From positions 204,281-268,280 of the forward strand of contig CAZULC010000001.1 in NCBI GenBank assembly GCA_964621165.1: DNA of 64,000 nucleotides, in the 5' to 3' direction. Of this stretch, positions 42,716 through 42,906 are shown one piece after another (position 1 is the stretch's first letter; the number at the start of each line of letters is the position of its first letter). Both the position numbers and the translations under genes were made by a program. This stretch comes from an uncultured Ruminococcus sp. Its GTDB lineage: Bacteria > Bacillota > Clostridia > Oscillospirales > CAG-272. A model generated the notes under the pieces. It made no database searches, was not told the DNA's origin, and was given only the letters and a program-made list of their open reading frames with translations.

Positions 42716-42906
42716 CGGGAGCAAATTTTAGGTCGGCAATGTCCGACTGCGGCAGCTATTCTATAAAATCGTGGGATTTCTTTAGATTTAGACTGAGGAA
42801 TAGCCGGAGTTCCCCACTGCGGGAGCTATGGAAGTGTCGTCGTGGGTTGGCTCTCCTGTTCAGCTGATGAAGCGCCGAGAATGCCTGTCGGTGCTACCGA
42901 CCCCGT
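42716..42906 (+). repeat. Family C repeat (about two partial units) upstream of rimP
   Basis: GGGAGCAAATTTTAGGTCGGCAATGTCCGACTGCGGCAGCTAT...CACTGCGGGAGCTATGGAAGTGTCGTCGTGGGTTGGCTC...CCTGTCGGTGCTACCGACCCCG. It matches 18470-18620 and the reverse complement of the 40095 units. Confidence 0.85.

Follow-up and report, generated by a model that had tools for sequence, protein, structure and literature searches.

Family C, a small repeat dispersed through the intergenic spacers of one lineage of uncultured gut Clostridia

Several groups of small bacterial interspersed repeats have been described. MIRU-VNTR loci are said to consist of tandem units of 50–100 bp that lie between the cistrons of operons and overlap the upstream stop codon, and MIRU units reportedly contain small open reading frames that bridge the flanking genes. 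BOX elements, known from Streptococcus pneumoniae and S. suis, are composite repeats of the form boxA–boxB(n)–boxC (PMC3049150), REP/BIME sequences occur in enterobacteria and pseudomonads (PMC2817692, PMC3184786), and the bacterial MITEs include Correia/NEMIS, Nezha and bcr1 (PMC3184786). Here we describe family C, a real small repeat of ~85–135 bases that has dispersed into the intergenic spacers of a single lineage of uncultured gut Clostridia, with ten units at six loci in the 64-kb stretch of DNA that was analysed (the window).

The window is a replication-origin region that runs from mreC to rsmG, noc/parA/parB, mnmE, jag, yidC, rnpA and dnaA, and continues after an AT-rich gap with dnaN, remB, gyrB, gyrA, a tRNA-Ser gene and the rimP-nusA-ylxR-L7Ae-infB operon. 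The 1.4-kb gap between dnaA and dnaN (25576–26985), which has a copy of a second repeat, family A, at its left end and the lowest G+C of the window (0.36 at 26001–27000), is presumably oriC. The results concern this one origin-proximal window and ~16 kb from relatives; the close relatives are represented by short contigs of three metagenome assemblies, with NusA 90% and 86% and DnaN 88% and 86% identical.

Self-comparison of the window by BLAST delimits an island of self-similarity at exactly 42716–42906, upstream of rimP. Its 42716–42759 segment is 100% identical to 18478–18521 over 44 nt and its 42813–42906 segment 95.7% identical to 18505–18598 over 94 nt; further matches link 42858–42905 to 28424–28471 (85%), 42743–42809 to 60661–60727 (82%) and, on the opposite strand, 42810–42895 to 56287–56202 (71%). 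The motifs that a sequence-only reading had quoted as shared pieces are all present, with counts of 2–6 against 0.00–0.10 expected from shuffled sequence: CCCCGYGGGGGCTTCCCC has six sites in the window (0.10 expected), CCTGTCGGTGCTACCGAC five (0.02), AGGTCGGCAATGTCCGACTGCGG two (0) and CTGCGGSAGCT-N13-CGTGGGWT four true sites (0.03), the last with an extra three-mismatch chance site at 50088. Pairwise alignment of the tandem array at 40095 with the other units is weak (~65% over 83 nt), and identities among units are 93–96% within the array, 96% between C18 and C42b, 77% between C42a and C60, and 54–68% between subfamilies. The link is significant with cross-validated nhmmer profiles, each built from one subfamily or from the relatives' units only. 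The array-only profile matches 42815–42897 (E 1.8e-6), 56279–56197 (9.5e-6) and 18508–18610 (1.4e-5), the profile from units of other assemblies alone matches all C copies in the window (E 5e-12 to 8e-4), and a profile from any single subfamily recovers the remaining subfamilies. These matches among subfamilies identify the segments as homologous units rather than chance G+C hairpins, and the proposed homology to the 40095 units is borne out for every segment that had been listed (cross-validated E 1e-4 to 1e-12). Homologous units were found in three other assemblies, and an independent short-read assembly of run SRR10165008 (contig L001) matches the beginning of C42 and one unit of the array without a difference, the contig terminating inside both repeats.

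The approximate coordinates proposed earlier pointed to the right loci, with bounds that needed correction for C18, C28, C56 and C60, and the roughly two partial units upstream of rimP (C42) resolve into a 5′ hairpin module followed by units a and b. The family C features of the window, together with the predicted promoter beside C42, are as follows.

18478–18612, plus strand: C18, the most complete unit, with 5′ hairpin module, core, TGCTA hairpin and GCTT hairpin
28419–28484, plus strand: C28, the 3′ ~60 nt of a C18-type unit with both hairpins, joined to family A copy A8; 88.5% identical to 18550–18610
40095–40410, minus strand: C tandem array, three 106-bp units filling the L7Ae–infB spacer (TRF period 106, 3.0 copies, 93% matches)
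42716–42746, plus strand: 5′ module of C42, CGGGAGCAAATTTT and then the hairpin GGTCGG-CAATGT-CCGAC; identical to 18478–18508
42743–42815, plus strand: C42a, a C60-subtype core without terminal hairpin; 77–82% identical to 60661–60727
42813–42906, plus strand: C42b, a C18-subtype core ending in GTCGG-TGCTA-CCGAC; 96% identical to 18505–18598, final GGGGGCTTCCCC hairpin absent
42970–42998, minus strand: predicted promoter of the rimP-nusA-infB operon (consensus scan: TTGCAA-17-TATAAT, upstream TG)
56165–56292, minus strand: C56, a diverged unit that stands alone, immediately past the stop codon of an SLH-domain gene, terminal hairpins swapped
60661–60759, plus strand: C60, a C unit joined to family A copy A22 at ...GATTGCGG/CAGCT, with a decayed terminal hairpin, GTCAG-TGCTA-ACGAC

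An alignment of 13 units defines the anatomy of family C: an ~85-nt core contains three blocks, YTGCGGSAGCT, TCGTGGG and GCCG, that vary little or not at all between subfamilies and species, and the remainder, including the variable stretches between the blocks, is ~60% identical. At one end the core carries a short hairpin rich in G+C, of which there are two types, CGGGGGCTTCCCCG and GTCGG-TGCTA-CCGAC, the first type reading CGGGGG-CTT-CCCCG and having a GTTT loop in the relatives. The two types differ by paired changes (TCGG/CCGA versus GGGG/CCCC), and pairing in the terminal hairpin is preserved through a single compensatory change (C-G to U-A, in C56) and a single wobble. Both types occur in C18 and, in swapped order, in C56; C42b and C60 have the second type only and the array units the first type only. 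C18 and C42 additionally have, at the opposite end, a 31-nt 5′ module that contains a third hairpin (GGTCGG-CAATGT-CCGAC), and the left flanks of these copies (at 18478 and 42716) differ, which defines the left boundary of this subfamily. Behind the module, C42 is a dimer of two different subtypes with switch points at the conserved CTGCGG block. The fragmentary or diverged copies are recognised by profiles, C42a by the full profile (E 7e-16) and the relatives-only profile (6.9e-6), C28 by a C18-type profile (2.7e-12) and C56 by profiles from which it was excluded (3.5e-6 to 7.5e-10).

Within spacers, C copies run from gene end to gene start. The array begins inside the last codons of L7Ae, whose stop codon lies within the first unit, contains stop codons in all three sense frames, and ends with a hairpin 6 nt before the Shine–Dalgarno sequence (SD) of infB; C18 is bounded by the end of A5 and, at its opposite end, by the jag terminator, and 4 nt separate the end of C28 from the remB SD. 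The position of the predicted rimP promoter would place C42 inside a 5′ leader of ~290 nt, antisense to the C orientation. That promoter (minus strand, within 42907–42998) has a near-consensus extended −10 element and is followed by a leader hairpin (GAGAGTG...CACTCTC, then TATTTCATGA); both are conserved in relative L083 at 2797–2890, and repeat insertions start immediately past the hairpin, C in the window and A in the relatives. Across ten loci in the window and relatives, C lies sense to local transcription in four and antisense in six. An IS200/IS605-like strand bias relative to replication was considered and rejected, the C orientations in the right replichore alternating +, −, +, −, +.

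Three of the window C loci touch family A, a mosaic repeat of 200–450 bp that fills 18 of the 41 spacers (44%) and 37% of the intergenic DNA in the window, with copies even between dnaA, dnaN, remB, gyrB and gyrA. The family A spans are:

5232–5655: family A
12066–12410: family A
16177–16603: family A
18091–18473, plus strand: A5, a complete single-headed copy with 't1' tail, between the mnmE promoter and C18
25577–25965: family A
28278–28423, plus strand: A8, cut after the second module (arm alignment)
28875–29101: family A
31418–31872: family A
32795–33163: family A
44901–45262: family A
46674–46853: family A
49021–49369: family A
52799–53016: family A
60413–60660, plus strand: A22, a family A copy without the usual tail
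61478–61823: family A
63311–63649: family A

The 19 A heads in the window share a near-invariant 30-mer, CGCGCTTCTTGAAAGAAGCTGTGCAAGAAC, that contains a 7-bp palindrome and is conserved far better than the A body. The head always forms the outer edge beside a gene, a few nucleotides from a stop codon or gene start, and points inward, and the interior consists of variant modules that are permuted and end in alternative tails; three copies are two-headed. Pairing in the palindrome is kept at 95%, with one compensatory C-G to U-A change in two copies, a change that recurs in a distant relative (L091 11667). A reading of the head as a sigma-70 promoter (TTGAAA-17-TTTAAA) is weak: the consensus scan returns no promoter there, and the −10-like part is not constant among the copies. 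The 't2' tails of family A (12340–12440, 45170–45266, 49281–49373, 63566–63660) resemble diverged C by eye; neither a C profile nor a t2 profile links the two. Two solo remnants of A, at 23698–23793 and 36807–36930, each consist of a pair of outer ends in inverted orientation, fused at the head palindrome or close to it. A 20-nt hairpin (GGAGATAGCTTGCTATCTCC) in A module M4, for example at 18318–18357 and 61583–61622, is present in all nine window copies that reach this region and absent from all seven A copies in the 86–90% relatives (cf. L083 3015–3034). Given this split by lineage, A copies are closer to other copies in the same genome than to those at the corresponding positions in relatives, which points to concerted evolution or to bursts that occurred separately in the lineages.

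Examination of the contacts between the two families bears on the earlier proposal that A and C fuse at reproducible joints and move or recombine together. Fusion holds for two of the three contacts, A8/C28 and A22/C60 being chimeras, whereas A5/C18 is a plain abutment (18473/18478, 4 nt apart) at which a complete A tail, with the same end point as copy 31418–31872, meets the C 5′ end. At the A8–C28 joint, the second A module passes into C, ~60 nt before the C end, across a CTGA/TGA microhomology (~28419–28424), and at the A22–C60 joint the transition follows ...GATTGCGG at a TGCGG microhomology (60660/60661). The joints are thus not reproducible: all three lie at different positions in both elements, and none is over-represented in the window. 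Nor do the families appear to move together: no A adjoins C at three of the six window loci (40095, 42716 and 56165) or at any of the five C loci in relatives (two in L083, the L084 array and L089). With A in 18 of the 41 spacers, C in six and both in three (hypergeometric P = 0.54), shared spacers occur at the level that chance gives when A fills 44% of them.

Comparison with relatives indicates how quickly these sites change. The 86–90% relatives carry both A and C, at sites different from those of the window. The rimP–nusA spacer is 48 nt and C-free in the window, holds a partial C in L083 and a head-to-tail C array in L084 (740–985); both L083 and L084 have the stop codon of rimP within the C hairpin, and their RimP is 162 aa long, versus 157 aa in the window. 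A C unit lies upstream of dnaN in L089, 3 nt from the SD, and another after the aminotransferase gene in L083, the window having none at either site. The rimP leader contains C in the window and A in L083 and L084, with the same start point past the conserved leader hairpin, and the L7Ae–infB spacer is occupied by an array of 324 nt in the window versus 0–44 nt in relatives with 75–76% NusA identity. Family A also differs between these genomes: after dnaN, a full-length A in L088 and L089 corresponds to the truncated A8+C28 chimera of the window, and upstream of dnaA, where L088 has ~870 bp (20–900) with two complete facing A elements, the window has a remnant of 96 bp whose joint shows CTTC microhomology.

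At greater distances, C was not found in the syntenic loci of the 75–76% (NusA) and 67% (DnaN) relatives, where spacers are 0–230 nt; the 67% relative has a single A-like element after uvrB and no C in 12 kb. The closest GTDB species representatives do not exceed 60% identity in NusA, and neither A nor C was found in any of 80 GTDB-representative Clostridia loci. An exact A-head pattern gave no match in GTDB species genomes, a scan that is too strict because the relatives carry a 1-nt head variant, and none in IMG/VR. BLAST of A5+C18 against plasmid and phage collections gave no match, and a census of A through spurious open reading frames crossing the head (profile from A5) returned two proteins, both from this window. 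A scan of JGI metagenomes with the TGCTA-hairpin motif yielded one match, on an unrelated phage-like contig, L082 (OBEQ013056185.1). This contig carries three GCCTG-stem-TGCTA-stem hairpins (740–800, 1362–1382) whose stems are different but complementary, one of them identical over 21 nt to the C-family TGCTA hairpin, and an open reading frame for a putative M15-type peptidase-like protein, as read from its translation; the L082 form of the motif was not found in ~850 kb of other Clostridia loci.

We also considered whether C acts as a structured RNA. No repeat matches Rfam at the gathering threshold or at E ≤ 5, the C18 fold is no better than those of shuffled sequences (z-scores −0.6 and −0.5 for the two strands), and RNAalifold on 13 or 11 units, on either strand, finds trivial helices only (−2.5 and −5.2 kcal/mol, 0–1 covarying pairs). 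With no curated match, no covarying fold on one strand and mixed orientation, family C does not belong with structured non-coding RNAs or riboswitches: the short hairpins of C and A are maintained, and a larger strand-specific fold is without support. In three sense-oriented copies the hairpin ends close to an SD, at a distance of 4 nt (remB), 6 nt (infB) and 3 nt (dnaN, in L089).

On this evidence, family C is probably a lineage-specific, non-coding and non-autonomous interspersed repeat that would expand by tandem amplification and form chimeras by recombination or deletion. Copies have been gained at, or lost from, different spacers on the time scale that separates the 86–90% relatives, as the filled and empty sites show. 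Once in place, a unit may grow into a short head-to-tail array by slippage or unequal recombination, a step suggested by arrays of two to three near-identical units, and copies may exchange segments at the conserved blocks, as the mosaic C42 suggests. Family A would be a separate, denser and larger family, independent of C, and the apparent A–C fusions would comprise one adjacency and two chimeras that, judging from the junctions, arose by deletion or template switching at 3–5-nt microhomologies; the same process may have produced the 96-bp solo A remnant upstream of dnaA. The two families would meet because both accumulate in the few permissive gaps, from the stop codon or terminator to the next promoter or SD. 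New C copies may be made by a trans-acting transposase or by recombination, both being possible. Around C, no target-site duplication was recognised, and Pfam scans of the open reading frames found no transposase encoded in the window, such that we infer transposition of C from site polymorphism only; some of the filled/empty pairs could instead reflect ancestral copies that were lost in one lineage and kept in another.

Other readings were weighed against this one. Inter-subfamily identities of just 54–68%, and the fact that the most striking shared pieces are short G+C-rich palindromes, might suggest unrelated low-complexity hairpins or assembly artefacts; that view is refuted by motif counts far above shuffled expectation and by cross-validated profiles (E 1e-5 to 1e-12) over a non-palindromic core of ~85 nt, and, given also the homologous units in three other assemblies and the sequence reproduced by the independent SRR10165008 assembly, its probability is negligible. 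A second rival, in line with the sequence-only suggestion that A and C move or recombine together, is a composite or co-mobilised element in which the A–C fusions would be the transposing unit and lone C copies pieces of it. Contact with A at three of six window C loci, the existence of modular composite repeats such as BOX (PMC3049150), and the confinement of both families to the same narrow lineage, in which both vary in site between relatives, are consistent with such an element. We nevertheless consider it unlikely, because the junction position differs in all three fusions, C is solitary at half of the window loci and at every locus in relatives, co-occurrence is at chance, the 67% relative has an A-like element with no C in 12 kb, and the rimP leader has A or C as substitutes, not both together. 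Since A and C do not travel as a unit, C is an ordinary selfish or mosaic intergenic repeat and not a new type of system.

A role for the host is harder to dismiss: the three blocks are conserved better than neutral decay predicts, which keeps selection by the host the main rival to the interspersed-repeat reading. C would then be a cis-acting element, recruited for its function and repeated for that reason, which at the RNA level might be a 5′ stabiliser or processing site before the SD, or a 3′ stabiliser or terminator after the stop codon, and at the DNA level might be a protein-binding site formed by the hairpin and blocks. Near-invariance of the blocks across subfamilies and species against ~60% identity elsewhere hints at constraint beyond neutral decay, the terminal hairpin is kept through one compensatory change and one wobble while its two types differ by paired changes, the hairpins 3–6 nt before the SDs of remB, infB and dnaN (L089) could be functional, and effects on mRNA stability or expression are known for REP/BIME (PMC3184786) and BOX (PMC3049150). 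Set against these points, C lies in both orientations within transcribed spacers, shows no conserved fold or covariation past the short hairpin (z about −0.6), and is missing from the orthologous essential operons of 67–76% relatives; the 86–90% relatives already place it elsewhere, and a unit that fills a short spacer automatically puts its hairpin near the SD. We therefore regard host selection as a minority reading, improbable yet worth keeping in mind. There is a slim chance that the C blocks and hairpin, together with the 30-nt A head, are selected as the target of a lineage-specific protein or RNase; if so, the repeats would be operon punctuation that sets mRNA processing, stability or termination by infB, rimP, remB and dnaN, and C and A near the replication origin would form a domesticated repeat-based regulatory layer rather than junk. 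For an interspersed repeat, by comparison, effects on neighbours, such as a hairpin near the SD of infB, remB or dnaN or a new rimP stop codon, would be by-products.

The repeats have practical consequences for this lineage. They explain its poor short-read assembly: contigs L001, L084, L087 and L089 end in or near repeats, and the closest relatives are on contigs of 2–6 kb. They shift gene boundaries: in two relatives a C hairpin supplies the stop codon of rimP, and the array contains that of L7Ae. They also lengthen the leaders and intercistronic spacers of essential operons by 200–450 nt of structured sequence. Repeat-derived sequence can also mislead start-codon calling in this window: the longest rsmG open reading frame (5683–6696) encodes 337 aa with a Pfam match from residue 100 only, the longest gyrB frame (29047–31401) starts at a TTG inside an A head, and both are probably over-extended into repeats. 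Several other repeats were observed in the window. A third family of ~170 bp has three copies, 75–80% identical (20878–21055, 58220–58388 and, on the minus strand, 58503–58652), with a hairpin at its centre, GACTTCCGCAGAAGTC, and one end rich in T; the spacer before the gene of an AMP-binding enzyme is flanked by two of the copies in inverted orientation. The region encoding the infB N-terminus (39499–39797, minus strand) contains a 24-nt coding tandem repeat (12.4 copies, 88% matches) with several 9-nt repeats nearby (39075–39327), and direct repeats of ~50 nt, 82% identical, follow the second parB-like gene (10373–10423 and 10436–10483). Families A and C offer a clean natural example of turnover over short distances, by insertion or loss, tandem amplification, microhomology chimeras and within-lineage homogenisation; they introduce no new principle, and their use lies mainly in the annotation and assembly of uncultured gut Clostridia and as strain markers.

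Compared with described groups, family C shares features with each. As a tandem array between cistrons that overlaps the upstream stop codon, it resembles MIRU-VNTR loci; unlike MIRU, it also occurs as dispersed single copies in both orientations, and a MIRU-like reading of the 40095 array as small open reading frames is ruled out by stop codons in all frames of every unit. In common with MITEs, C is small (85–135 bp, where MITEs stay below ~400 bp), intergenic and without coding capacity, breaks short-read assemblies, and shows filled and empty sites (rimP–nusA, upstream of dnaN, the aminotransferase 3′ end and L7Ae–infB). However, the terminal inverted repeats that define MITEs appear weak or absent in C, flanking direct repeats were not found, and tandem arrays are atypical of MITEs. 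The sole terminal inverted match is a weak one of ~6 nt, TGCGGG...CCCCGCA, although hairpins at both ends of the C18 subtype have the same GTCGG/CCGAC stem; no common direct repeat surrounds C18, C42, C56, the L083a and L089 copies or the rimP–nusA filled/empty pair, where imprecise boundaries leave a duplication of 1–2 nt possible. With no target-site duplication and a terminal match of ~6 nt, strict MITE membership of C is not established.

The closer parallels are with REP/BIME and BOX. Like REP/BIME, C places G+C-rich stem-loops after stop codons or between cistrons, singly or clustered, forms mosaics with other motifs, has a species-specific consensus and could plausibly influence mRNA stability. 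A REP is, however, a palindrome of 20–40 nt, whereas C has a non-palindromic conserved core of ~70 nt in a unit of ~85 nt, with the 14–16-nt hairpin as just a cap; REP orientation alternates in BIMEs, whereas the C arrays in the window and L084 are direct; and no RAYT gene or GTAG-type head was seen with C in the window. REPs number in the hundreds per genome; C has its ten units at six loci in 64 kb. Like BOX, C is a small, non-coding, modular intergenic repeat of Firmicutes in which the number of head-to-tail modules varies and sub-modules are permuted, limited to a species and its close relatives, presumably co-transcribed with its neighbours and occasionally altering gene ends (PMC3049150). 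Its unit number shows a BOX-like variability between loci: three in the window array, two in C42, two with extra hairpins in L084 and one elsewhere. The differences from BOX are that the arrays at 40095–40410 and L084 740–985 meet gene ends or the SD directly, with no shared terminal modules; that C units are about twice the size of boxB, with no terminal inverted repeats or target-site duplications recognised and no sequence similarity established; and that A and C behave as independent families rather than ordered parts of one element. BOX and the REP/BIME mosaics are thus the nearest analogues of family C, which nonetheless departs from the defining architecture of each and is best placed as a new family among the small interspersed repeats already known from bacteria. 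The combined density of A and C (44% of spacers, ~10% of the window) and the fast turnover are notable, though not unprecedented.
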